From positions 1 through 10,411 of the IMG/VR virus record IMGVR_UViG_2703718789_000003: DNA of 10,411 nt; one strand, written 5' to 3'. This stretch comes from a virus. Taxonomy: Duplodnaviria > Heunggongvirae > Uroviricota > Caudoviricetes. The translations under genes were made by a program, and so were the position numbers. Below the pieces are notes generated by a model. That model did no database searches. It saw only the letters and a list, made by a program, of their open reading frames with translations, and was not told where the DNA came from. This document shows, one piece after another, positions 1 to 10,411 of this stretch; within the stretch, counting starts at the first letter, position 1, and every line of letters starts with the position of its first letter.

Positions 1-275
1 TCAGAACGCTCGGTTGCCGCCGGGCGTTTTTTATTGGTGAGTCCATCAAGCGCATACTTAAAAGCCCTGCTAATCGGACTGATGTCTGATGCCATTCCGA
101 AAGCACACAAGACCGAAGCAATAAATCTCCAGTCCGTTCTGCTTATCTTCGATTCATGACAGCCAATCATCTTTGCCAGACCGCGCTGGGTAAGCGTTGA
201 CAGGTTGATAAGTAAATCTGTTTCTGCGCGATCAACGTCGCGCTGTGATAGTTTGCTGTAACTTGTTTGTTCCAT
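1..275 (-). CDS. cII: CII-like transcriptional activator, partial (C-terminal end lies beyond window start)
   Basis: Minus-strand translation from ATG (revcomp of 273-275) gives MEQTSYSKLSQRDVDRAETDLLINLSTLTQRGLAKMIGCHESKISRTDWRF...LTNKKRPAATERSE; the C-terminal stretch TNKKRPAATERSE matches lambda CII as I recall it; open to the window edge, which is why it is absent from the ORF track. Confidence 0.7.
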   Translation of the reverse strand, partial: MEQTSYSKLSQRDVDRAETDLLINLSTLTQRGLAKMIGCHESKISRTDWRFIASVLCAFGMASDISPISRAFKYALDGLTNKKRPAATERS

Positions 276-286
276 TTCTTACTATT
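253..286 (+). promoter_or_regulatory. Candidate CII-dependent pRE-like promoter (TTGC-N6-TTGT with TACTAT -10), reading toward cro antisense and cI
   Basis: TTGC at 253-256, six nt, TTGT at 263-266, overlapping the first codons of the cII-like gene on the other strand; -10-like TACTAT at 280-285; same position and geometry as lambda pRE. Confidence 0.25.
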
Positions 287-394
287 TCCATAGGTAAATA
301 ATTTGGTTTTTTATTGTGCACCATTGACAGTCATCCATGACCACGCCGGGCACCCGACCGTATACCGGGCCGTTCGGTATAAAAATTTGCTTTA

Positions 395-625
395 TTAAGC
401 TGCTTTGTTCGGATTGGGGAACAAAGCGGATAAATCAGGGCGAATCAGGTATGCAGGGACGCTTCCATTGGTAGCCATTTCAATGCGCTTGGCATTTTCA
501 GCGGATACCCTTTTCTTCCCATGCAACCAAGCCCATACAGACGGCTGCTTAACACCGCAGGCATCAGCTAACTTTTGCTGACTTCCTACTGAGTCAATAG
601 CCGCTTTAATAGCCTTGTTGACCAT
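395..625 (-). CDS. Cro-like small HTH regulator (Cro/YdaS family), 76 aa
   Basis: ORF track 395..667(-); I prefer the internal start MVNKAIKAAIDSVGSQQKLADACGVKQPSVWAWL... at 625 because an AGGAG Shine-Dalgarno lies 9 nt upstream on the minus strand (revcomp of 635-639); HTH-like core QQKLADACGVKQPSVWAW; diverges from cI across an operator region. Confidence 0.7.
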   Translation of the reverse strand: MVNKAIKAAIDSVGSQQKLADACGVKQPSVWAWLHGKKRVSAENAKRIEMATNGSVPAYLIRPDLSALFPNPNKAA

Positions 626-656
626 AAAAATAACTCCTGCTGAATTCACAATTAGG

Positions 657-685
657 ATAATAGCCAAAGCTATTCAGAAAGTAAA
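657..685 (-). promoter_or_regulatory. PR-like sigma70 promoter for the cro-like gene (TTTACT -17- TATTAT on minus strand)
   Basis: Minus-strand -35 TTTACT (revcomp of 680-685) and -10 TATTAT (revcomp of 657-662), 17-nt spacer; overlapped by operators at 659-674 and 684-699. Confidence 0.45.
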
Positions 686-723
686 TAGCTTTAGGTATTT
701 GACTAATAATAGCTGTAGCTATA
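659..723. promoter_or_regulatory. OR-like tripartite operator array: AATAGCcaaaGCTATT (659-674), AATAGCtttaGGTATT (684-699), AATAGCtgtaGCTATA (708-723)
   Basis: Three 16-bp inverted repeats with 6-4-6 geometry, centre-to-centre about 25 and 24 bp, lying between the divergent cro-like and cI-like genes and overlapping the candidate promoters. Confidence 0.6.
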
Positions 724-725
724 GG
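699..725 (+). promoter_or_regulatory. PRM-like promoter for cI (TTGACT -15- TATAGG), possibly giving a leaderless or near-leaderless cI mRNA
   Basis: TTGACT at 699-704 and TATAGG at 720-725, 8-13 nt before the cI ATG at 734, with no good SD; third operator overlaps the -10 and second operator abuts the -35. Confidence 0.3.
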
Positions 726-733
726 TTGTACGA

Positions 734-1465
734 ATGAAACTAGATACTTTTTCTCAAAGGCTTACATACGCGATGGATCAGGCTGGGTTTACTCAGGCTT
801 CTCTTGGCAATGCTGTTGGCATGTCTCAGCCAAGCGTCTGGAAACTTACGTCTGGAAAAACACGCAATACGCGCAAACTTTTTGAAATATCAAAAGTGCT
901 TGGAGTTCGTACGGAATGGCTTTCCGATGGAACTGGGCCAATGCGTGATGAGGGAGTTGAACCTTATAATCCAAAATCTTCTATTCCCCATGAAAGCACG
1001 TGGGGATATTTGGACCCATGGGATGGAGGAACGCCTTTAAGAGGTGATGAAGTTGAAATTCCTTACCTTAAAGATATTGAGTTTGCATGCGGGGATGGTC
1101 GGGTGATTGATGAAGATCACAACGGCTTTATGTTGCGCTTCTCCAAATCAACCCTTCGCAGAGTTGGCGCGAACAGTGATGGAAGCGGGGTTGTTTGTTT
1201 TCCGGCTCGTGGCAACAGCATGGAGCCAAACATTCCTGATGGAACAACAGTTGCTGTTAACACCAACGATAAGAAAATAGTTGACGGAAAGATTTACGCC
1301 ATTAACGAGAACGGCTGGAAACGCATTAAGATTCTCTTTCGGTCAGGGCCTGACAAGGTAAGCATTAGAAGCTTTAACTCACTGGAATACCCACAAGAAG
1401 AAAAGAATCTAAGCGATATCGAGATCATCGGAAGAATCTTCTGGTGGTCTGTAGTTGACTACTAA
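734..1465 (+). CDS. CI-like prophage repressor: N-terminal XRE-type HTH plus C-terminal S24 (LexA/UmuD-like) autopeptidase domain
   Basis: 243-aa ORF; HTH-like region QRLTYAMDQAGFTQASLGNAVGMSQPSVWKL; C-terminal GNSMEP (catalytic Ser motif) and downstream Lys (GWKRIKIL) typical of S24 peptidases; divergent from the cro-like gene across the operators. Confidence 0.85.
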   Translation: MKLDTFSQRLTYAMDQAGFTQASLGNAVGMSQPSVWKLTSGKTRNTRKLFEISKVLGVRTEWLSDGTGPMRDEGVEPYNPKSSIPHESTWGYLDPWDGGTPLRGDEVEIPYLKDIEFACGDGRVIDEDHNGFMLRFSKSTLRRVGANSDGSGVVCFPARGNSMEPNIPDGTTVAVNTNDKKIVDGKIYAINENGWKRIKILFRSGPDKVSIRSFNSLEYPQEEKNLSDIEIIGRIFWWSVVDY

Positions 1466-1482
1466 CCTCATCACACCACAAC

Positions 1483-1507
1483 AAACCCGCTTTTTGCGGG
1501 TTTTTTA
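1483..1507 (+). terminator. Rho-independent terminator after cI (stem AAACCCGC/GCGGGTTT, loop TTTTT, then T-run)
   Basis: Perfect 8-bp inverted repeat at 1483-1503 followed by TTTTTT; A-rich upstream so it could act in both directions. Confidence 0.65.
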
Positions 1508-1604
1508 TTGCCCAAAAAACACCAAATCTCACATACAAGAAAAATAAATTACATTAGATATCAATGACTAAATAACCAAAGGAGTTATTTTATAACTATA
1601 GCTA

Positions 1605-1633
1605 TTTACAGCAATAATAGCTTTGGATATAGT
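1605..1633 (+). promoter_or_regulatory. pL-like sigma70 promoter (TTTACA -17- TATAGT) overlapped by an OL-type operator AATAGCtttgGATATA (1616-1631)
   Basis: Near-consensus -35 and -10 hexamers with 17-nt spacer; operator half-site identical to the OR operators; a second degenerate site (ATAGCTAT core, 1597-1604) overlaps the -35. Confidence 0.45.
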
Positions 1634-1729
1634 TAAGCCATGTCGAACGGCGCGACATTAAACCATGCGTCGGGAGCGCGGCGGGTTCAGGATGAACGGC
1701 AATGCTGCTCACTACAAAAGAACATTTCC

Positions 1730-1762
1730 ATAACTTGATAGTTATTAAAGTGTTTTTATATA
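1730..1762 (+). promoter_or_regulatory. Second promoter-like element (TTGATA -16- TATATA) overlapped by a perfect 16-bp palindrome ATAACTtgatAGTTAT (1730-1745) of different sequence from the cI operators
   Basis: Hexamers at 1735-1740 and 1757-1762; palindrome has the same 6-4-6 geometry as the operators but different half-sites. Confidence 0.25.
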
Positions 1763-1840
1763 CGGGGTTAGCGATCTCGTGACACAAACCATTTACGCGG
1801 CAGGCTACCGGAAATCAAAACAATTGACGGCGAGGTAATT

Positions 1841-2203
1841 ATGGGTCAGGAAGAAAAATATGAGCTTAAAAAGCTCATTGAAGAAGACGCCATAGAAGAA
1901 ATTGCAGCATTAACAACAGCTATAAAGAATATTAGGTATGCGCTAAATACGCTTATCTCCTCATGCGACAAAAATAGCAGGGAATTTTTGATACTTGGCG
2001 CAGCTCTAGGAATAGTTGATGCGGCAACGCTTCACCTAATTACTCATGACGATATTCTTATTGAGCCGTATGAAACATTACTGCTTGTCAGGCAAAAAAT
2101 GGCTGATGCCGCAGCAAATGGAGACCTTCAACTTTACATCGACTTAAGGAAAGTATTAAGGCGAATGGTCAGAACTGAAGGAGATATCACCCTGACAAAA
2201 TAA
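1841..2203 (+). CDS. Hypothetical protein, 120 aa, first gene downstream of pL (N position) but with no arginine-rich motif
   Basis: ORF with GAGGT SD 6 nt upstream of ATG; acidic helical N-terminus MGQEEKYELKKLIEEDAIEE; AT-rich by eye; no family recognised. Confidence 0.5.
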   Translation: MGQEEKYELKKLIEEDAIEEIAALTTAIKNIRYALNTLISSCDKNSREFLILGAALGIVDAATLHLITHDDILIEPYETLLLVRQKMADAAANGDLQLYIDLRKVLRRMVRTEGDITLTK

Positions 2204-2383
2204 GGGGGTGAGAGGATTTTACTATTTTTCTCGCTGTAGGGGTACACGAGAACCACCGAGCCTGATGTGGTTAAAAGACAGGCACAATCTTTACTACCGC
2301 AAGCCACGCAGTGAAATGGGTGTAACTTGTGTTGGTCGCCAGAAAATGAAATTAGGCAGCAAACCACTTATTTGAGGTGAGAT

Positions 2384-2854
2384 ATGACAAAATCATGGAG
2401 CGTACCTTTTCCTGAATCAGAAACTGAACATGATGGAATGCCTGTTTTCTGGAGATTCCAGGCGACAGTTGAAGAAGATGGGATAAAAATATTCGCACTT
2501 CAATATATAGCTTTTCATCAGACAGAGCATTATGCATGGTTGGTTCCTGCGCATTGGATTGTTAATTTTAAACCAGCACCAAATCAGTGGTTACAGGAAT
2601 GGAAACAAAGGAGAAATAGATATGCAATTAAGAAAGTAGCAAAAAATGCAGAAAGATCTTTTGCATTCCCAACGAAGAAACTTGCCATTGAAAGTTTATT
2701 GCGCCGGAAGAAATACCATTTAATGAGAATCAAACAAGATTTGGCTGTTGTATCAACTCTTGTTGATGGGATGAAGAATATTGATACATCAATACCAGAT
2801 ATTGAATATAACTTTGGACACAACCAAGAAACAGAAAATTGGGTATTTTATTAG
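2384..2854 (+). CDS. Hypothetical protein, 156 aa, Trp-rich, AT-rich coding sequence
   Basis: ORF with GAGGTGA SD 5 nt upstream of ATG; no family recognised; occupies the ral/sieB-equivalent position between the pL-proximal gene and cIII. Confidence 0.55.
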   Translation: MTKSWSVPFPESETEHDGMPVFWRFQATVEEDGIKIFALQYIAFHQTEHYAWLVPAHWIVNFKPAPNQWLQEWKQRRNRYAIKKVAKNAERSFAFPTKKLAIESLLRRKKYHLMRIKQDLAVVSTLVDGMKNIDTSIPDIEYNFGHNQETENWVFY

Positions 2855-2959
2855 TACGAATAAGCACTGTGTATTCATTCCAGCGAGTGAATACACGGAG
2901 CAATGTCGCTCGTAACTAAACAGGAGCCGACTTGTTCTGATTATTGGAAATCTTCTTTG

Positions 2960-2982
2960 CCCTCCAGTGTGAGGGACTTTTT
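2960..2982 (+). terminator. Intrinsic terminator-like hairpin (CCCTC/GAGGG, 6-nt loop) followed by TTTTT
   Basis: Stem 2960-2964 with 2971-2975, T-run 2978-2982; lies upstream of cIII like a tL-type terminator. Confidence 0.4.
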
Positions 2983-2995
2983 ATATGCATACCAA

Positions 2996-3019
2996 TAACG
3001 CTTCACTCGAGGCGTTTTT
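2996..3019 (+). terminator. Second weaker terminator-like hairpin (AACGC...GCGTT) followed by TTTTT
   Basis: 5-bp stem 2997-3001 with 3012-3016, 10-nt loop, T-run 3015-3019. Confidence 0.3.
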
Positions 3020-3045
3020 CGTTATGTATAAATAAGGAGCACACC

Positions 3046-3186
3046 ATGCAATATGCCATTGCAGGGTGGCCTGTTGCTGGCTGCCCTTCCGAATCTTTAC
3101 TTGAGCGAATCACCCGTAAATTACGTGACGGATGGAAACGCCTTATCGACATACTTAATCAGCCAGGAGTTCCAAAAAATGGATAA
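3046..3186 (+). CDS. cIII: CIII (FtsH/HflB inhibitor that stabilises CII), 46 aa
   Basis: MQYAIAGWPVAGCPSESLLERITRKLRDGWKRLIDILNQPGVPKNG is nearly identical to lambda CIII as I recall it, but ends 8 residues earlier; AAGGAG SD 6 nt upstream of ATG 3046; the ORF-track entry 2944..3186 is an upstream in-frame extension. Confidence 0.85.
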   Translation: MQYAIAGWPVAGCPSESLLERITRKLRDGWKRLIDILNQPGVPKNG

Positions 3187-3292
3187 AACACTTATGGCTA
3201 TCCAGACTAAATTCACTATCGCCACTTTTATTGGCGATGAAAAGATGTTTCGTGAAGCCGTAGAAGCCTACAGAAAATGGAGGTCAAAATGA
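3179..3292 (+). CDS. kil: Kil-like small protein (lambda Kil is an FtsZ-targeting host-killing protein), 37 aa
   Basis: MDKTLMAIQTKFTIATFIGDEKMFREAVEAYRKWRSK resembles my recollection of lambda Kil; AGGAG at 3165-3169; starts 8 nt before the cIII stop as in lambda; sits inside ORF-track entry 3053..3292. Confidence 0.5.
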   Translation: MDKTLMAIQTKFTIATFIGDEKMFREAVEAYRKWRSK

Positions 3293-3477
3293 TTCCGGTA
3301 GAACTGGCGAAAACCCCAGAGTTAAGTCGATTAAAAAGAGAGTATCACATTGCTGAGGCTCGTTACTGGCGTAAAGCGGGAGATAAATCAAAGAAACAAC
3401 TTTGCTTATGGCAGGCACAAAGAGAGCGCATGAATGAGCGCGAATTTCTTTCCTCCCCATCCGAATTACCATTCTGA
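3289..3477 (+). CDS. Hypothetical small basic protein, 62 aa
   Basis: GGAGG SD at 3279-3283, ATG 3289 overlapping the kil stop (ATGA coupling); MIPVELAKTPELSRLKREYHIAEARYWRK...; no family recognised. Confidence 0.45.
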   Translation: MIPVELAKTPELSRLKREYHIAEARYWRKAGDKSKKQLCLWQAQRERMNEREFLSSPSELPF

Positions 3478-3485
3478 GGTGAATT

Positions 3486-4142
3486 ATGGGTACTGCGACA
3501 TTAATACTCGGTGAGTCTGGCACCGGAAAATCAACCAGTTTAAGAAACTTACCACCAGAAAAAACATTAATCATACAGTGCATAAACAAACCGCTACCAT
3601 TCCCATCAAGTGATTGGGTTAAAATAAGCAAGGAAAACAATAACGGGAACATATACAGAACAGATAATACTGAAAATATTGTAAGGGCACTAATTAATGC
3701 TCCGCATGAAATTGTAGTTATTGATGATTATCAGGCTGTGATGGTTAACGAACTAATGGGTAAATGCAATGAGAGAGGATATGACAAATTTACCTCGATA
3801 GGGAAAAACGCATGGGATGTGTTCAGGGCTGCTGGTGAAGGTGCAGACACTCGGAGAGTTTATATTCTGGCACACACGCAAACTGATGATTTTGGCTATA
3901 CACGAATGAAAACCGTCGGAAAACTAGTCGATTCGACACTTGTTCCTGAAGGTTATTTCACTATCGTGTTAAGAACTCACGTACAGAACGGAAAATACTC
4001 ATTTTCCACCCAGACAAACGGGAGTGATTGTTGTAAAAGTCCGGTTGGGATGTTTGATAGTCAGTTTATTGATAATGATTTGTACGAAGTAGATAAAAAA
4101 ATATGCTCTTACTATGGGTTTGAAAAAAATGAGACGTCTTGA
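3486..4142 (+). CDS. P-loop ATPase, Sak4-like / AAA_24-type (RecA-core-only recombination ATPase of phages)
   Basis: Walker A GESGTGKST at residues 9-17, Walker B-like hhhhDD (EIVVIDD) about 65 residues later, conserved-looking YILAHTQ segment; lies where lambda has exo/bet/gam; GAGGTGA SD. Confidence 0.6.
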   Translation: MGTATLILGESGTGKSTSLRNLPPEKTLIIQCINKPLPFPSSDWVKISKENNNGNIYRTDNTENIVRALINAPHEIVVIDDYQAVMVNELMGKCNERGYDKFTSIGKNAWDVFRAAGEGADTRRVYILAHTQTDDFGYTRMKTVGKLVDSTLVPEGYFTIVLRTHVQNGKYSFSTQTNGSDCCKSPVGMFDSQFIDNDLYEVDKKICSYYGFEKNETS

Positions 4143-4734
4143 GGTATCCGGCGAGAGATTTGGCAATTTAGTTGTTATTGGTGATGCAGGAATGCGTGGT
4201 ACTCAAAGGTTGGTAAACTGTGTGTGTGACTGCGGAGTAGTTTGTGTTAAACAGCTTGGCAACCTCCGTTCAGGGCACACAAGAAGTTGTGGTTGCTCAC
4301 GCTCATCTACAACAAAAGCAAGAAAAAACAAACATGGCATGTATGGAACACCAACATACAAGTCATGGTCTTCAATCTTAACAAGATGCTTCAATGAAAG
4401 AAATAGTAAATACAAACACTATGGAGGAAGAGGAATAACTGTTTGTGAACGGTGGCTGAACTTTAAATTATTTTTCGCTGATATGGGAAAAAGACCTGAC
4501 GGAACTACATTGGGAAGAATTGATAACAATGGTAATTACGAACCATCAAATTGCGAATGGCAGAAAAGTATCGAGCAAGCAAGAAATAAGAGTAATACCG
4601 TATTATTTAAATTCAATGGAGTGCTGGCAACAATTTCAGAGCACTGCGAAAAAACTGGATTAAACCCAAGCACGGTAAGAAGCAGGATTTACACATATCA
4701 TTGGTCTGTAGACAAGGCCTTATCAAAAGGATAA
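4129..4734 (+). CDS. HNH-like (HNH_3-type) Cys-rich putative nuclease / DNA-binding protein
   Basis: Cys cluster CVCDCG...SCGC followed by YKSW...YGGRGITVCERW...GRIDNNGNYEPSNCEW, a pattern I associate with phage proteins annotated as HNH endonucleases; start uncertain (ATG 4114 or 4129, neither with a strong SD); overlaps the end of the ATPase gene. Confidence 0.5.
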   Translation: MRRLEVSGERFGNLVVIGDAGMRGTQRLVNCVCDCGVVCVKQLGNLRSGHTRSCGCSRSSTTKARKNKHGMYGTPTYKSWSSILTRCFNERNSKYKHYGGRGITVCERWLNFKLFFADMGKRPDGTTLGRIDNNGNYEPSNCEWQKSIEQARNKSNTVLFKFNGVLATISEHCEKTGLNPSTVRSRIYTYHWSVDKALSKG

Positions 4735-4738
4735 AAGC

Positions 4739-5326
4739 ATGAGCAACGTAATTTTTACTTATAACGAAGAAGCAGCACTGACCGCAGGGCAAGGTGGTTT
4801 TATTAACGAAACTGGCGCTCACATAATTACCATTACTGAAGCAGAACTCAAGCAATCAGAAAAAGGAGCCAAATTTATTGAGTTTTCTGGAGAATCCGAC
4901 GACGGACGTAAAATCCAGTATCTTAGCGTCTGTGTTCAGAAAAATGACGGCACGGAAAACAAATTTGGCGCAAATGTCGTTCACGCCATGATGGGGTGTG
5001 CCGGGATTGGACAATTAACGCAACATATGGTTTCCGCCAGTAAATTTGTTGCACCTGAATTTCATGGAAAGAAAATCGGGTTAGTGCTCCAGAAAGTATT
5101 AACCACAAACAAAAAGACTGGCGCAGACAGCTACCAGATGGAAATACGCATCCCGTTTATTGCACAAACAGGTCAAACCCTTAAAGAAAAGGCAGAAGGC
5201 AAGCAACCAGAAACTATCGCCAACATGGTTGCCAGCCTCAAAGATAAAGACAATCGCTCTAAAAACGTAAGCCATAATCATGCAGATGATTATGGTTACA
5301 GCCAGAACGATTACCCTCCTTTCTGA
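4739..5326 (+). CDS. Possible ssDNA-binding protein (SSB/gp2.5-like acidic-aromatic C-terminal tail); function uncertain
   Basis: 195-aa ORF ending ...HADDYGYSQNDYPPF, reminiscent of the SSB C-terminal DDDIPF tail; Sak4-type ATPases are commonly encoded near an SSB; the N-terminal region is not recognisably an OB-fold SSB by eye. Confidence 0.35.
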   Translation: MSNVIFTYNEEAALTAGQGGFINETGAHIITITEAELKQSEKGAKFIEFSGESDDGRKIQYLSVCVQKNDGTENKFGANVVHAMMGCAGIGQLTQHMVSASKFVAPEFHGKKIGLVLQKVLTTNKKTGADSYQMEIRIPFIAQTGQTLKEKAEGKQPETIANMVASLKDKDNRSKNVSHNHADDYGYSQNDYPPF

Positions 5327-5349
5327 TTACTGAAAATAAGGCTCCCATT

Positions 5350-5646
5350 ATGCCAGCGCCTCTGTATGGTGCGGATGACCCGCGCAACTGCTCCGGTAGC
5401 TCCAAGGCGGAGGTGCTGGAAAATATCAAAAACAATTTCGACGCGTTTCTTGCTCTGACACCAGAAACAAAAGCAGAACGGATGTACCGACGCGATATAC
5501 AACTCGCGCTAAAACAGGAGAAGGACCGAACAAACGAAACAGCAATGAGACCGTTGCGAAAAGCGACAATAGACAAATTCCCTGAATATATCGACCCGCG
5601 CCTGCGTAATTACCGCTCACGCTATGGCGCTATCAGTAATGACTGA
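5350..5646 (+). CDS. Hypothetical protein, 98 aa
   Basis: ORF in the same operon and strand; no motif recognised. Confidence 0.45.
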
Positions 5647-5656
5647 GGAATTTACC

Positions 5657-5824
5657 ATGAGAGGACTTGCATACAATCCCGGCATTCTTCCGGCAGAAAT
5701 GATTATTCGCCAACGCGTAAAGCCAATGCCCTCGAGAGAGGAATTGCTTAAGAGAAAGAGTTTCGGTTCTGTTAATGACAACAAATATCTGAATGCGATG
5801 TTGCGCAAAGGAGGCAACCAGTGA
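5657..5824 (+). CDS. Hypothetical small protein, 55 aa
   Basis: Inside ORF-track entry 5624..5824; I prefer ATG 5657 with GAGG 8 nt upstream; its stop overlaps the next gene's GTG start. Confidence 0.35.
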
Positions 5825-6414
5825 GCAAAATTGACTATCAGGTACTGCGTGAAAAGGCAGAAAAAGCAACGTGTGGTGAGTGGTCTCTCGAATATGGAGA
5901 GAGCCGATTTGATGGTGATGATGCACTAATTCATCGCGAGGCTGCTGGATATATTCCCATTTGCAGAATTGAAGGAGCGCATCCTGAAAGCGGTTTCGAT
6001 GAAGATTTCCAAATGGAACAGCAGGCCAATGCTGAATTCATCGCCGCAGCCAATCCGGCTACCGTCTTGGCGCTGCTGGATGAGCTGGAAAGAAACCAGC
6101 AATACATCAAACGCCGCGACCAGGAGAACGAGGATATTGCGCTAACGGTAGGGAAACTGCGTGTTGAGCTTGAGGAAGCAAAATCAAAACTCAACGAGCA
6201 ACGCGAGTATTACGAGGGAGTAATCGCGGATGGAAGTAAGCGCATAGCAGAACTGTCTGCTAGCCACAGCAAATTGCGCGACACAATGGCTGGCATCCAC
6301 AACACAATCCGAATGGATGGCGGCTATACGCCACTGGCAGCAATCCTTAACGCTGCTAAACGCGCATATGAAGAATCAGCAAGCGCCGCTGGCATCAAGG
6401 AGGAGTCTGAGTGA
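5821..6414 (+). CDS. Ead/Ea22-like protein (coiled-coil-rich phage early protein)
   Basis: GTG start with AGGAGG SD; N-terminal [21 protein letters not shown] resembles the start of proteins I recall as Ead/Ea22-like in enterobacterial prophages; central coiled-coil-like region. Confidence 0.5.
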
Positions 6415-6905
6415 TGGTCATTTCACCTATAACGCTGAAAGCGGCGCAGGAATTTATCGCACAGCACCACCGACACAATAAACCACCAGTGGGGCATAAA
6501 TTCAGCATTGGTCTGAGAAATAATGCCGGAGAATTGATAGGTGTGGCGACAGCTGGTCGACCTGTTGCACGACATTTGGACGATGGATTAACGCTTGAAG
6601 TAAATCGCACATGTACCACAGGAGAACGCAACGCTAACAGCGCGCTTTATGGTGCTGTCTGGCGGGCAGCAAAAGCTATGGGTTATCAACGTTGTATTAC
6701 GTACACCCAGGCAGATGAATCAGGAGCATCTCTTCGCGCAGCTGGTTTTGTTCGTGTGAAAGAGCTTCCTCCAAGAAAAAGCTGGGCGGAATCAAGCGTC
6801 GCCCTGCGGAGTAAACGCGATCCGGTCGGAAACGGTGGTATTCCTCGTGTGCTCTGGGAAATCAGGAGAATGAGTACCGCTGGCATTCGCATCAAAGGAG
6901 AGTGA
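6411..6905 (+). CDS. Hypothetical protein, 164 aa, with HHRHNKPPVGH and GVATAGRPVAR motifs
   Basis: Start overlaps the upstream stop (GTGATG); GAGGAG SD; no confident family assignment. Confidence 0.55.
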   Translation: MMVISPITLKAAQEFIAQHHRHNKPPVGHKFSIGLRNNAGELIGVATAGRPVARHLDDGLTLEVNRTCTTGERNANSALYGAVWRAAKAMGYQRCITYTQADESGASLRAAGFVRVKELPPRKSWAESSVALRSKRDPVGNGGIPRVLWEIRRMSTAGIRIKGE

Positions 6906-6906
6906 G

Positions 6907-7098
6907 ATGAACGGACAAATCTCAATTGTTCGACCGGGAGCATGTGACGATCGCGAGATACGAATGATTATTCGTCTGGCGATGGGGAAAACAATAACTG
7001 CTCTCATTACTCCAGAAAATCTCGCATTAGCATTAACCGGAAAGTCAGACCTGCCAGTAGAGCTAAAGCTGCGAAATGTTGAGATTAAGGTGAAATAG
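6907..7098 (+). CDS. Hypothetical small protein, 63 aa
   Basis: AAGGAG SD, start overlapping upstream stop. Confidence 0.4.
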   Translation: MNGQISIVRPGACDDREIRMIIRLAMGKTITALITPENLALALTGKSDLPVELKLRNVEIKVK

Positions 7099-7100
7099 CT

Positions 7101-7718
7101 ATGACCACTATTACCGACAAAGAGCTAATTAAAGAAATTAAAGAACATATCAGCAGTCTGGGGGTGCGGGACAATATTGAGCGCCGTGCTTATGAAATTG
7201 CGTTGACTGCATTGACCGCTGAACCATTCGCCACTATCGACACCGCGGGAATTGAGCTCGTTAAATATGGTTGTAACACGTTTATTTGTCCCGACAATTC
7301 GATGGATCCGGGAAATGTACCGCTATATATCGGCCTGCCACGAATTGAGCCAGCAAGCCAGACTGCCAAGCTGTCATTCCAGGAATGGTTGTCAGAACAA
7401 AAAGAAAAAATAGACGTTGATTGCGGATGTGTGAGCACTGAAACGCTTATGCACTGGATGCGTGTGGCGTATGAGGCTGGCAACTCTCCGGTAACTCCGG
7501 ATGGTTGGATAAGCTGTAGTGAGCGAATGCCGAAAAAGAATCAGAACGTACTTATTTCGGTGAATTTCGATAGTGATCTGGTTGAGCCGCTAATATGCTC
7601 CGCACGCTATACCGGAAGCACCTTTCGGCGAGGAGATGTAACGATTAAGCCGGGCAATGGTGTTGAGCAGGTAACCCACTGGATGCCGCTACCAGAACCG
7701 CCGCAGGAGGTTAATTGA
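7101..7718 (+). CDS. DUF551-domain phage protein
   Basis: C-terminal GWISCSERMPKKNQNVLISVNF...VTHWMPLPEPP matches the DUF551 signature (W-I-S...R-L/M-P ... HWMPLPEPP) as I recall it; AGGTGA SD. Confidence 0.6.
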   Translation: MTTITDKELIKEIKEHISSLGVRDNIERRAYEIALTALTAEPFATIDTAGIELVKYGCNTFICPDNSMDPGNVPLYIGLPRIEPASQTAKLSFQEWLSEQKEKIDVDCGCVSTETLMHWMRVAYEAGNSPVTPDGWISCSERMPKKNQNVLISVNFDSDLVEPLICSARYTGSTFRRGDVTIKPGNGVEQVTHWMPLPEPPQEVN

Positions 7719-8002
7719 TGGACTCCTTCGCGAAATATACGATTATTGACTGGATAGCATTCCTTCAGGTTTTGCTCATCTGGTTTTATTTGGCTTATAG
7801 GAGTGGACAGTGGATTGTCAGTGTAGCCTGTAGCAAGGGATGGCGTTGGTGGAACCGAAAGAATAAAAAAGCACTGGCCTTGGATTCATTTTACGAAGCA
7901 TTCAATCTTAACAGCCTTCAGCCTGGTTCTGTCGTTGTAGTCACCACTCAAAGCGGCATGACGATACAAATTCACAAGCCAAAGGAGGAAGGTCGTGGCT
8001 AA
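7715..8002 (+). CDS. Small hypothetical protein with an N-terminal hydrophobic (possible transmembrane) helix
   Basis: AGGAGG SD, TGATG stop-start overlap with upstream gene; hydrophobic stretch IIDWIAFLQVLLIWFYLAY. Confidence 0.45.
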   Translation: MMDSFAKYTIIDWIAFLQVLLIWFYLAYRSGQWIVSVACSKGWRWWNRKNKKALALDSFYEAFNLNSLQPGSVVVVTTQSGMTIQIHKPKEEGRG

Positions 8003-8279
8003 CCTGCAACTTGCAGTCAAAGGTGAATACTTCGATGCCATGATTCGCGGGGAGAAAACAGAAGAATATCGCCTGTGCAATGACTGCTGGAATAAGCGAA
8101 TTATGTTCCGGGAATATGACCGCCTGATTATCACAAAGGGATATCCTAAGCGCGAGGATTCCAGTCGCAGAATTGACGTTCCGTATGACGGATATGAAAT
8201 CAAGACAATCACACATCCGCACTTCGGTGATAAACCGGTAAAGGTGTTCGCGATAAAGGTGAATATCGGCAATGAATAA
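7995..8279 (+). CDS. Hypothetical protein, 94 aa, possibly ASCH/PUA-like (DUF3850-like)
   Basis: GTG start preceded by AAGGAGGAAGG; GEYFDAMIRGEKTEEYR resembles the ASCH-like YF..V..G.KT.E.R motif; low-certainty family call. Confidence 0.4.
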   Translation: MANLQLAVKGEYFDAMIRGEKTEEYRLCNDCWNKRIMFREYDRLIITKGYPKREDSSRRIDVPYDGYEIKTITHPHFGDKPVKVFAIKVNIGNE

Positions 8280-8283
8280 CAAT

Positions 8284-8309
8284 CCTCGCACTCGCGGGGA
8301 TTTCTTTTA
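8284..8309 (+). terminator. Terminator-like GC hairpin (CCTCGC/GCGGGG with one G-U pair) plus U-rich tract
   Basis: Stem 8284-8289 with 8294-8299, followed by ATTTCTTTT. Confidence 0.35.
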
Positions 8310-8313
8310 TCTG

Positions 8314-8338
8314 AACTCGCTACGGCGAGTTTTGTTTT
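8314..8338 (+). terminator. Rho-independent terminator (AACTCGC/GCGAGTT, loop TACG, TTTGTTTT)
   Basis: 7-bp stem 8314-8320 with 8325-8331 and T-rich tail; marks the end of the coupled early operon. Confidence 0.55.
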
Positions 8339-8350
8339 ATGGAGATGATT

Positions 8351-8650
8351 ATGGCCTGTTCAACATTCAACCCTCTAACGTTACAGAAATACCAGCCAGA
8401 CCCTGAAGATTTATGCTCACTGTGTGGCGGAAATCATGGCAAAGCCGCCATGATCGAATGTAAAGACAAAATCCACATTTGCCTTAATTGCGTTGATGTC
8501 CTCGTTGATATCAAAAATGAGAGAGAAGATAAAAAGCGTAGCGAGGCTGTTCGCGCCTTAGATTCATGGATGCGAGATGGGTATAGTGCCGCGCAAATTT
8601 ATGACTTAGCAATATCAAAAGGCGAAATACCAGGAGTGCGCATCGAATAA
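8351..8650 (+). CDS. Small Zn-ribbon-like protein (CxxC...CxxC), 99 aa
   Basis: Inside ORF-track entry 8339..8650; ATG 8351 preferred (GGAG 7 nt upstream); Cys pairs CSLCGG and CLNC; bracketed by terminators on both sides. Confidence 0.5.
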   Translation: MACSTFNPLTLQKYQPDPEDLCSLCGGNHGKAAMIECKDKIHICLNCVDVLVDIKNEREDKKRSEAVRALDSWMRDGYSAAQIYDLAISKGEIPGVRIE

Positions 8651-8690
8651 GACGTAACCAATATTCGAATTGAAGAACTGAAAGAACACC

Positions 8691-8716
8691 AAGCCGCCTG
8701 ATGGCGGTTTTTTCTT
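8691..8716 (+). terminator. Rho-independent terminator (GCCGCC/GGCGGT, loop TGAT, T-run)
   Basis: Stem 8693-8698 with 8703-8708, followed by TTTTTT. Confidence 0.5.
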
Positions 8717-8735
8717 ACACATGCAGAGGCAACTT

Positions 8736-9020
8736 ATGCGCGAGTTAGTAAACCAACATAACCATGGCATTCAGCCAGTCATCACACCTGTTGTACAGAT
8801 AAATGCGAATGAATGGGTAACACTGGAGCTTTTAATGGCTGTAACAGGCCTGAGAAAAGGAACAATATTACGCGCCAGGGACAGTGCGTGGATGAACGGC
8901 AGAGAATATAAACAAATCGCCCCCGACGGAACGCCAAAGAAAAACAGCGAATGTCTCTATCATCTTCCTACCATCAACACTTGGATCAAAAACCAACCCT
9001 TACCATCTCAGGATGTTTAA
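8736..9020 (+). CDS. xis: Excisionase-like (Xis) small DNA-binding protein
   Basis: Immediately upstream of int; EWVTLELLMAVTGLRKGTILRARDSAWMNGREY fits the winged-helix excisionase pattern; start at 8721 or 8736 (GAGG SD before 8736). Confidence 0.5.
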   Translation: MRELVNQHNHGIQPVITPVVQINANEWVTLELLMAVTGLRKGTILRARDSAWMNGREYKQIAPDGTPKKNSECLYHLPTINTWIKNQPLPSQDV

Positions 9021-9072
9021 TTCTTGTCCATAAGAGTATAACCTGAGCGTGCTCTTGGACGCAGGAGGAACA

Positions 9073-10383
9073 ATGGCGAATTCAGCCTATCCAGCCGGCG
9101 TTGAAAATCACGGAGGAAAACTCCGAATAACGTTTAAGTACAGGGGTAAACGAGTGCGCGAAAATCTTCGCGTGCCCGATACACCGAAAAACAGAAAGAT
9201 CGCTGGTGAGTTAAGGGCTTCGGTCTGCTTTGCAATCAGAACAGGAACGTTTGATTATGCCGATCGATTCCCTGACTCACCTAACCTGAAGCTATTTGGC
9301 CTGGTAAAAAAAGATATCACCGTCGGTGAACTGGCACAGAAATGGCTTACTCTGAAAGCAATGGAAATCGGTAGTAACGCCTTAAATCGTTATCAATCAG
9401 TGATGAAAAATATGCTACCGAGGCTTGGTCCTGGCAGGCTGGCGTCATCGATTACAAAAGAAGATCTGCTGTTTATCAGGAAAGATTTACTGACCGGGGA
9501 AAAGGGAAGCAGGAAAACCAGCACGTCCCGAAAAGGAAGAACCGTACCCACAGTGAACTATTACATGACAACAACAGCCGGAATGTTCAGCTTTGCCGCC
9601 GAAAACGGGTATCTGGAGAAAAACCCGTTTAATTCAATAACACCGCTGAGGAAATCAAAACCAGTGCCGGATCCACTGACCAGAGATGAGTTTAGCCGTC
9701 TCATTGATGCCTGCCATCATCAACAGACCAAAAACCTCTGGACAGTGGCTGTTTTTACAGGGATGCGACACGGTGAAATTGCCGCACTTGCATGGGAGGA
9801 TATCGACCTGAAAGCTGGCACGATAACAGTGCGACGAAATTTTACAAAAATAGGTGATTTTACGCTACCAAAGACCGACGCAGGCACTAACCGGGTTATA
9901 CATCTTCTGGCACCAGCAATTGAAGCACTTAAAAACCAGGCGATGCTTACTCGTCTTAGCAGGCAGCATCAGATCACTGTTCAATTACGCGAGTACGGAA
10001 GAACAATTTTGCACGAGTGCACTTTTGTTTTCTGTCCGCAAATCGTTCGCAAGAATCACAAGGCGGGTATTAACTACGCGGTAAGCTCCATCGGAGCGAC
10101 ATGGGATTCAGCAATAAAAAGAGCGGGTATCCGATCCCGTAAAGCGTATCAGTCACGCCATACCTATGCGTGCTGGGCTTTATCTTCCGGAGCAAACCCG
10201 ACATTTATTGCATCACAGATGGGGCACTCCAGCGCCAGCATGGTCTACAATGTTTATGGTGCATGGATGCCTGAGTGCAGCGTGACTCAAGTTGCCATGT
10301 TGAATAATGTCCTTAATGCCCGTGCCCCAGACGTGCCCCAAAGTGACCAGGAGGATGAAATAAAATTATATTTTTCAAAATGA
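9073..10383 (+). CDS. int: Tyrosine site-specific integrase (phage integrase family)
   Basis: AGGAGG SD 4 nt before ATG 9073 (ORF track begins at upstream in-frame ATG 9049); N-terminal arm-binding-like GGKLRITFKYRGKRVRENL; C-terminal catalytic-domain motifs including HxxRHT-like SRHTYACWAL and terminal Tyr region MVYNVYGAWMP. Confidence 0.9.
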   Translation: MANSAYPAGVENHGGKLRITFKYRGKRVRENLRVPDTPKNRKIAGELRASVCFAIRTGTFDYADRFPDSPNLKLFGLVKKDITVGELAQKWLTLKAMEIGSNALNRYQSVMKNMLPRLGPGRLASSITKEDLLFIRKDLLTGEKGSRKTSTSRKGRTVPTVNYYMTTTAGMFSFAAENGYLEKNPFNSITPLRKSKPVPDPLTRDEFSRLIDACHHQQTKNLWTVAVFTGMRHGEIAALAWEDIDLKAGTITVRRNFTKIGDFTLPKTDAGTNRVIHLLAPAIEALKNQAMLTRLSRQHQITVQLREYGRTILHECTFVFCPQIVRKNHKAGINYAVSSIGATWDSAIKRAGIRSRKAYQSRHTYACWALSSGANPTFIASQMGHSSASMVYNVYGAWMPECSVTQVAMLNNVLNARAPDVPQSDQEDEIKLYFSK

Positions 10384-10411
10384 TAAACCATATCCTTAGA
10401 CATGTTGAAAC

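Follow-up and report, generated by a model that had tools for sequence, protein, structure and literature searches.

Are the nuclease-labelled genes that are packed into phage recombination (Rec) modules partners of the recombinase, or are they parasites? This is the question raised by the DNA described here, a stretch of 10,411 nucleotides (positions 1 to 10,411 of the IMG/VR record IMGVR_UViG_2703718789_000003), hereafter called the window. The setting is the early-left operon of a lambdoid Stx2a prophage. A gene labelled HNH endonuclease lies there between sak4, which encodes an ATPase of Sak4 type, and ssb, which encodes a protein that binds single-stranded DNA (ssDNA). A first-pass annotation, made from the sequence alone, described a module built from these three parts and saw in the middle gene either a homing-type insertion or a functional partner. 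We find that the region is an HK620-type recombination module, already characterised experimentally, with a new divergent sak4 allele, and that the working module consists of Sak4 and SSB (with Abc2). The middle gene is an insertion and not a part of this core. It is probably, if by no means certainly, a selfish freestanding gene of homing type that has carried a foreign segment of sak4 along with it.

The middle gene is an insertion

Three open reading frames (ORFs) on the + strand, at 3486–4142 (218 amino acids), 4114–4734 (206 amino acids) and 4739–5326 (195 amino acids), are found where the first-pass annotation had placed them. Each matches a PHROG profile (E-values of 4e-82, 3e-63 and 3e-66 for sak4, the middle gene and ssb, respectively), comparisons with relatives give ratios of non-synonymous to synonymous substitution (dN/dS) of ~0.03–0.3 across the three, and the Stx2a-converting phage Stx2_16002 is 100% identical to the window over 3200–5700. 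They are therefore genuine genes and not chance ORFs. Over the same segment a prophage of Escherichia coli UTAK-1 is 99.9% identical to the window. The middle ORF overlaps the sak4 stop codon (4140–4142), and its product is rich in cysteine, with the motifs CxCxCG...SCGC. Its true start is likely to be the ATG at 4129, since this codon agrees both with the N-termini of homologous proteins and with the start annotated in RefSeq for an identical prophage; the predicted protein would then have 201 amino acids and the gene a 14-nt overlap with sak4.

A comparison of related prophages, which had been proposed as a check, shows that some have the middle gene and others lack it. HK620, TL-2011a, E. 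coli 20AR0300 and about 70 Stx-phage records are without it, and in three annotated examples that have no insert, sak4 and ssb overlap directly by 4 nt. The 1.2-kb block to which the gene belongs (see below) is present in 3 of 5,426 complete E. coli genomes, and in one of these three carriers the gene is split by an IS3-family element, with sak4 and ssb still intact. The split falls after codon ~77 (E. coli SCPM-O-B-7615, NZ_CP144926; locus L006, 4791–6004). Among the 5,426 genomes the window type of sak4 was not found without the insert, the nearest insert-free relative being a locus with 79% Sak4 identity (L012). Scans of the insert for a promoter or terminator of its own gave fewer promoter-like sites than shuffled sequence and no + strand terminator. 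The gene is under purifying selection (dN/dS 0.05–0.3). Because it is variably present, a homing-type insertion is favoured of the two roles first considered, and a functional partner is disfavoured.

A young foreign block

The window and the phages TL-2011a and HK620 have near-perfect nucleotide identity up to ~nt 3538. The identity is then lost, and it returns at 4737, which is 2 nt before the ssb ATG. Between these points, across 3539–4736, blastn finds no similarity to TL-2011a or HK620. This foreign block of 1,198 bp stands in place of 622 bp in HK620-type phages. A conserved patch lies on either side of it, on the left the Walker-A codons of sak4 and on the right the 5′ end of the ssb gene. 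Up to the ssb ATG, the insert has a 3′ end homologous to that of two other loci (L073 and L074). Homologous crossovers are possible in the two patches; between them the alleles are too unlike each other to recombine, so that the foreign sak4 segment moves with the insert. Conservation at the level of nucleotides extends over the first ~30 codons of ssb (MSNVIFTYN...) in enteric SSB types that elsewhere share 55–68% identity, and this conserved end may be a recombination ‘linker’ that sets the mosaic boundary. The 5′ ends compared were those of the window (4739–4830), L073, L074 and L013.

The block is also younger than its flanks. Two carriers with different backbones, L005 and L011, were compared with the window over the block and over its flanks (435 bp upstream and the 590-bp ssb downstream). 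Block divergence is 0.75% and 0.42%, respectively, and flank divergence is 3.5–3.7% (Fisher p of 3e-6 and 8e-9), so that the flanks have diverged about 5–9 times more than the block. Synonymous divergence between the window and L005 is 0.014 in sak4 and 0.023 in the insert, against 0.146 in ssb. Since synonymous divergence is low in the block as well, selection at the protein level cannot explain its young appearance. The data indicate that the block entered diverged backbones laterally and not long ago. Horizontal spread together with co-conversion of a flank, one of the features by which homing genes are recognised, is thus seen in two backbones.

The same junction in other phages

Relatives of the window Sak4 allele were gathered from GTDB genomes and from IMG/VR, and their neighbours were classed with local profiles. 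Twenty-four of the collected loci have the order sak4-HNH-ssb and 48 have sak4-ssb. The insert protein has its three closest homologs (81, 70 and 67% identical) in other lambdoid contigs, and each of them lies between sak4 and ssb. Loci with and without the insert are interleaved on a neighbour-joining tree of Sak4. Sporadic presence at a defined, cleanly bounded intergenic site, a second feature of homing genes, is clearest in the pair L017, which has the insert, and L019, which lacks it. These differ by a clean indel of 612 bp versus 64 bp, and on both sides their flanks are 79% identical as far as the stop of sak4 and the start of ssb. A different lineage of the insert is found when L017 is compared with L072: Sak4 is 83% and SSB 80% identical, whereas the HNH-like proteins are only 39% identical. 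L046, and L081 from a non-lambdoid phage, have further insert lineages at the same junction. There are at least four lineages of the insert family at the sak4|ssb junction, and the order sak4-insert-ssb is seen in phages of Enterobacterales, Burkholderiales and others.

The insert family is large, with 4,790 homologs, and insert homologs occur in 1,229 places in 1,075 phage records across many phyla, with up to three in one record. Other contexts include a position behind the portal gene and that of a lone reverse-strand gene near capsid genes. Members are also seen upstream of sak4 or right after ssb (L031, 61–585 and 5277–5918; L047, 3017–3661; L059, 2656–3114). Recurrence at one junction, patchiness, varied contexts, multiple copies and purifying selection together are what population genetics leads one to expect of a freestanding gene of homing type that prefers a certain site.

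Sak4 and its SSB

The first-pass annotation described the ATPase as a Walker A/B protein of Sak4 type, and the profile searches bear this out. The 218-residue protein matches phrog_2872 (‘Sak4-like ssDNA annealing protein’) with an E-value of 4e-82, spanning positions 1–216 of 219. It is 51% identical to HK620 HkaL over residues 1–211, or 97% of its length (E 4e-81; tblastn E 3e-67). Walker A (GESGTGKST, residues 9–17) and Walker B (IVVIDD, residues 76–81) are both present, and there are no extra RecA N- or C-terminal domains. The Pfam family AAA_24, to which the protein had been assigned, is indeed its best Pfam match, but the score of 24.1 bits lies under the gathering threshold of 27. As a control, the characterised HK620 Sak4 itself reaches AAA_24 at only 30.0 bits, and AAA_24 is therefore barely sensitive to this Sak4 clade. 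A DnaC-like loader or an ABC-type ATPase had been named as the outcomes that would speak against Sak4, and the Pfam and PHROG searches gave neither assignment. A search of PDB sequences with Sak4 returned only noise.

From residue ~19 onward, where identity to the HK620 allele is only 51%, the window Sak4 is a foreign allele relative to the HK620 type, as judged from the alignments. Its closest relatives are in other enteric lambdoid contigs (78–86% identity) and in Burkholderiales prophages (~66%). ATP-dependent ssDNA binding and annealing have been demonstrated for HK620 Sak4 (PMC5928155), and by homology the window Sak4 would be expected to anneal in the same ATP-dependent way. The automatic names of this allele are discordant: for 99% identical copies, PGAP gives ‘DEAD/DEAH box helicase family protein’ in one case and ‘AAA family ATPase’ in the other, in E. 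coli RMDEC465 (L005, 3877–4533) and UTAK-1 (L002, 4287–4943), and neither name says Sak4.

The 195-residue protein, first described as a putative SSB, is the cognate SSB of the HK620 module. It is identical to experimentally characterised HkaK of HK620 at 193 of 195 positions (99%) and to the TL-2011a protein at all 195. Purified HkaK is a genuine SSB, which enhances annealing by Sak4 in vitro as well as recombineering in vivo (Hutinet 2018, PMC5928155). Its NDYPPF motif is needed for stimulation of Sak4 and for binding of Sak4 to SSB-coated ssDNA (PMC5928155). The final six residues of the window SSB are NDYPPF, and the tail noticed in the first-pass annotation is therefore the published Sak4-interaction motif. 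HkaK was assigned to DUF669 (Hutinet 2018, PMC5928155), and PGAP calls a 99% identical SSB ‘DUF669 domain-containing’. The Pfam DUF669 model gives no match up to E 10 for the window SSB, nor for HK620 HkaK as a control, and the empty result therefore probably reflects the model and not the SSB.

It should be pointed out that the relatives of the window Sak4 lineage carry SSBs that are only 39–68% identical to the window SSB. For this reason the window represents a natural hybrid Sak4/SSB pair. The interaction of the SSB tail with Sak4 is probably generic, given that nearly all C-termini of the SSB family have an acidic stretch followed by (I/Y/F/T)-P-F.

The functional module exceeds 3486–5326, since an hkaM-like ORF upstream and abc2 downstream also belong to it. 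The order hkaM, sak4, ssb, abc2 is identical to that of HK620. The SSB and Sak4 identities, with hkaM and abc2 completing the HK620 gene order, make the core of the finding a known system.

The product of the middle gene

An AlphaFold2 (AF2) model of the middle protein (pLDDT 93) has a β-rich, Cys-containing N-terminal domain, a β-hairpin and helix core at residues 131–157, and a C-terminal helical helix-turn-helix (HTH). Six residues, Y103, R135, Y142, N146, Q155 and N158, are invariant among ~46 diverse family members. Pfam and NCBIfam scans of the protein and of 46 members give only weak HTH matches, and phmmer and profile hmmsearch of PDB sequences give nothing. The neighbours in BFVD are mostly named ‘uncharacterized’; other automatic names are HNH endonuclease, HTH homing endonuclease and AP2 domain-containing. 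The label ‘HNH endonuclease’ is therefore a weak one, given the searches set out below, and a nuclease activity of the protein is no more than plausible.

Some members are longer, with 311–355 amino acids (P0041–P0105), and have two to three tandem Cys-rich modules (GxRFGxLxV...CxCxCG...SCGC) or a duplicated core. A separate nuclease domain in these longer proteins was considered and rejected, as only the Cys-rich module or the core is repeated. The tandem Cys-rich modules suggest a modular, repeatable unit of DNA recognition.

Explanations for the insert

We infer both a homing mechanism and a nuclease activity, and the following course of events is proposed. The module would be transcribed in the early-left operon, from hkaM through sak4 and ssb to abc2. 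By homology to HK620, Sak4, an ATPase with a RecA core only, would anneal complementary single strands in an ATP-dependent manner, SSB would coat ssDNA and recruit and stimulate Sak4 via its NDYPPF tail, and Abc2 would modify RecBCD. The insert protein may cut or mark the HNH-less sak4|ssb junctions of co-resident phages, and recombinational repair would then copy the insert into the junction. The donor sak4 is only 51–52% identical to the HK620-type allele at the protein level, with no DNA similarity detectable by blastn. Since the donor sak4 is otherwise too diverged, crossovers in the repair would be confined to the Walker-A codons and the ssb 5′ end, and the insert would therefore drag the foreign 3′ five-sixths of sak4 along as a 1.2-kb block.

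Several observations weigh against a homing nuclease. Pfam detects no HNH family at E<=0.05 in 46 diverse members, and Foldseek finds nothing significant when the AF2 model is compared with PDB. The first-pass annotation had proposed a profile search with HNH_3. There is no Pfam HNH match, and in an hhalign comparison with a 41-sequence HNH_3 profile, built around gp47 of phage ES18, only the C-terminal HTH aligns, with a probability of 25%. Where the first β-strand ends, HNH enzymes have a His as general base; the family has the invariant Arg, R135, at this position, and the preceding residue has changed from Asp to Gly in the sak4-linked clade. No demonstration of endonuclease activity for any family member was found in the literature. 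The changed residues and the missing HNH profile match, together with an architecture dominated by DNA-binding modules (zinc-ribbon-like, in tandem in long members, and HTH), would fit a non-catalytic, sequence-specific DNA binder, i.e. a degenerate nuclease or a regulator, whose patchiness arises from ordinary modular recombination or from mobilisation in trans. Phage T4 offers a precedent for trans-homing of a defunct homing endonuclease, as mobE mobilises I-TevIII (PMC2790892). We nevertheless think such a binder unlikely. R135, Y142, N146, Q155 and N158 are invariant on a predicted ββα element in ~46 members, which suggests an active site and not a relic; the closest match in structure, PacI, is an HNH enzyme that is active although it lacks the catalytic His and has Tyr instead (PMC4081073); and without a site-specific activity it is hard to account for independent invasions of a single site. 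A bolder proposal is that the family, for which neither a Pfam model nor a solved structure exists, is an uncharacterised class of homing endonuclease, with a ββα-derived active site that has no His and uses an Arg/Tyr/Asn set, and that several of its lineages target sak4|ssb, each invasion replacing most of the resident recombinase gene. This is possible, and we hold it to be doubtful.

A second group of observations bears on the relation between the insert and Sak4. In the main lineage the identities of the HNH-like protein and Sak4 vary together (86/81, 83/70, 78/66 and 66/60, respectively), and this co-variation, with the translational coupling to sak4, would also fit a long-standing functional partnership. 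The middle protein might be a nuclease or nickase that supplies DNA ends or ssDNA to Sak4 and SSB; lambda has Exo and Rac has RecE, and HK620 has no such nuclease. Such a partner could also recur at the exact position in phages of Enterobacterales, Burkholderiales and others, with its start overlapping the sak4 stop and its sequence under purifying selection, and the 2025 survey of lambdoid Rec modules considers some tightly packed HNH genes to be likely legitimate members (PMC12315714). Yet HK620 Sak4 and SSB function in vivo and in vitro without any middle protein (PMC5928155), two-thirds of the related modules that were examined lack the insert, as do sister branches of the Sak4 tree, and on near-identical backbones one and the same site is held by unrelated family lineages. 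One genome retains a copy disrupted by an IS element, the family is found also among structural genes, and the protein is unrelated to the HNH protein gp47 of the ES18 Rec module. A partnership is thus quite unlikely. Ordinary homologous recombination with selection, and no nuclease, could also give the pattern of a young block, which is a further point against homing. That the middle ORF is a functionless remnant in decay, or a chance ORF, might be thought from the copy split by the IS3 element and from the missing match to a curated family. This is very improbable indeed and is already contradicted by the purifying selection (dN/dS as given above) and by the conservation of the gene: every other carrier has the ORF intact, thousands of homologs exist and the AF2 model is confident. 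The selfish, freestanding homing-type insertion that carries a foreign sak4 segment remains the explanation that we favour.

Neighbouring genes

The features of the window are listed in Table 1. The hkaM-like ORF is 98–100% identical to its counterparts in HK620 (98%) and TL-2011a. HkaM is described as an orphan protein (Hutinet 2018, PMC5928155). The 62-amino-acid ORF is labelled ‘recombinase’ in PHROG 1723 and in the RefSeq record of HK620, and this label looks like a carry-over from an old ‘arf’ annotation. The abc2 match to PF11043 covers the full length and, at 121.7 bits, lies well above the gathering cutoff of 25.

Table 1. Positions of the features discussed, in window coordinates
Feature	Coordinates	Strand	Evidence or remarks
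cI-like repressor	734–1465		
cIII and kil	~3046–3292		
hkaM-like small ORF, first gene of the HK620-type Rec module	3289–3477	+	phrog_1723, E 2e-33
sak4: Sak4-type RecA-core ATPase, predicted single-strand annealing protein, divergent allele	3486–4142	+	phrog_2872; homology to HK620 HkaL
5′ patch of sak4 (Walker-A codons), left recombination boundary	3486–3538	+	near-identical to TL-2011a/HK620, after which the alignment collapses
Foreign 1.2-kb block: 3′ five-sixths of sak4 and the HNH-like gene	3539–4736	+	no blastn similarity to TL-2011a/HK620
HNH-labelled gene, putative freestanding homing-type	4129–4734 (201 aa; 206 aa from ATG 4114)	+	Cys-rich zinc-ribbon-like N-terminus, ββα-like core, C-terminal HTH
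ssb: HK620-type SSB (HkaK, ‘SSB-2’, DUF669-type), C-terminal NDYPPF	4739–5326	+	HkaK identity; phrog_743, E 3e-66
abc2, P22-type anti-RecBCD, last gene of the Rec module	5350–5646	+	PF11043, 121.7 bits; phrog_656, E 5e-45
Integrase	9049–10383		

The stretch downstream of the Rec module is a mosaic that varies among otherwise identical carriers of the block. It encodes an Ead/Ea22-like protein (5821–6414, +; PF13935, 136 bits), a Mom-like DNA-modification protein (6411–6905, +) and a DUF551 protein (7101–7718, +; 80.6 bits). The Mom-like protein matches phrog_1384 with an E-value of 1e-43, and scores 24.2 bits with the Pfam Mom model against a cutoff of 27.1. Its length is 164 amino acids, compared with the 245 positions of the PHROG profile, and either truncation or a short variant may be the reason.

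Significance

The Sak4-SSB core is textbook HK620 and nothing new; the possible interest lies in the insert. No earlier report of this insert was found in papers on Sak4, in a search that did not extend to the supplementary tables of the Rec-module survey. The insert is a concrete case for the question left open in that survey (PMC12315714), whether nuclease-labelled Rec-module genes are partners or parasites. If the gene does home, a selfish gene swaps recombinase alleles that are 51% identical between Stx-converting prophages. Natural hybrid Sak4/SSB pairs would arise in this way, which bears on the specificity of the SSB tail for Sak4 and on which pairs to choose for recombineering tools. 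If the family were in addition a novel homing class, a selfish gene would drive the turnover of phage recombinase alleles. There is also a matter of annotation quality, as a very large phage family is routinely named ‘HNH endonuclease’ with neither the HNH catalytic His nor a profile match. Should the family be active, it would matter for nuclease mechanism as well.

Comparison with known systems

The closest system is the Rec module of HK620, with hkaM, hkaL (Sak4), hkaK (SSB_HK620 or SSB-2) and hkaJ (abc2) in the same order as in the window (PMC5928155). The two share the position in the operon after cIII and kil, an SSB that is 99% identical and ends in NDYPPF, an hkaM that is 98% identical, full-length homology of Sak4 with the Walker motifs kept, and an abc2 that follows. 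The window differs from HK620 in having a Sak4 only 51% identical from residue ~19 and an extra 0.6-kb gene between sak4 and ssb. It differs from its nearest Sak4 relatives in that its Sak4 is paired with an SSB of a different lineage.

ES18 gp47, a T7 gp7.7-like endonuclease of HNH_3 type that represents the ‘HNH nuclease’ kind in the 2025 survey of lambdoid modules (Genome Res, PMC12315714), is also the product of a small nuclease-labelled gene packed in a lambdoid Rec module. It adjoins ssb and abc2, and it raises the same question of a legitimate member versus a mobile gene. However, gp47 matches Pfam HNH_3 with an E-value of 9e-13, whereas the window protein has no such match, and its gene lies after ssb in an Erf-type module and not between annealase and ssb. 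That the middle gene is of the same kind as gp47 was considered and rejected; the families are different, since the HNH_3 profile aligns with the insert family only over the HTH. PacI (PDB 3m7k), a Zn-rich HNH restriction endonuclease, offers a parallel of another sort, as it uses Tyr as the general base.

The freestanding homing genes of T4 type (mobE, segB and segG), which spread by ‘intronless homing’ and co-convert flanking markers, differ from the window insert in some respects. The insert protein is not known to cleave DNA at any target site, and its core has neither the canonical HNH His nor an HNH profile match. The gene is seamlessly coupled in translation within the operon of a temperate phage, and the flank co-converted with it is an allele that has diverged strongly, not a set of point markers. 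The likenesses are, nevertheless, several. In both cases a gene is inserted between conserved genes and is sporadic among close relatives, the flank moves with the insert, DNA-binding modules accompany a small core domain, and some phage genomes have multiple copies.

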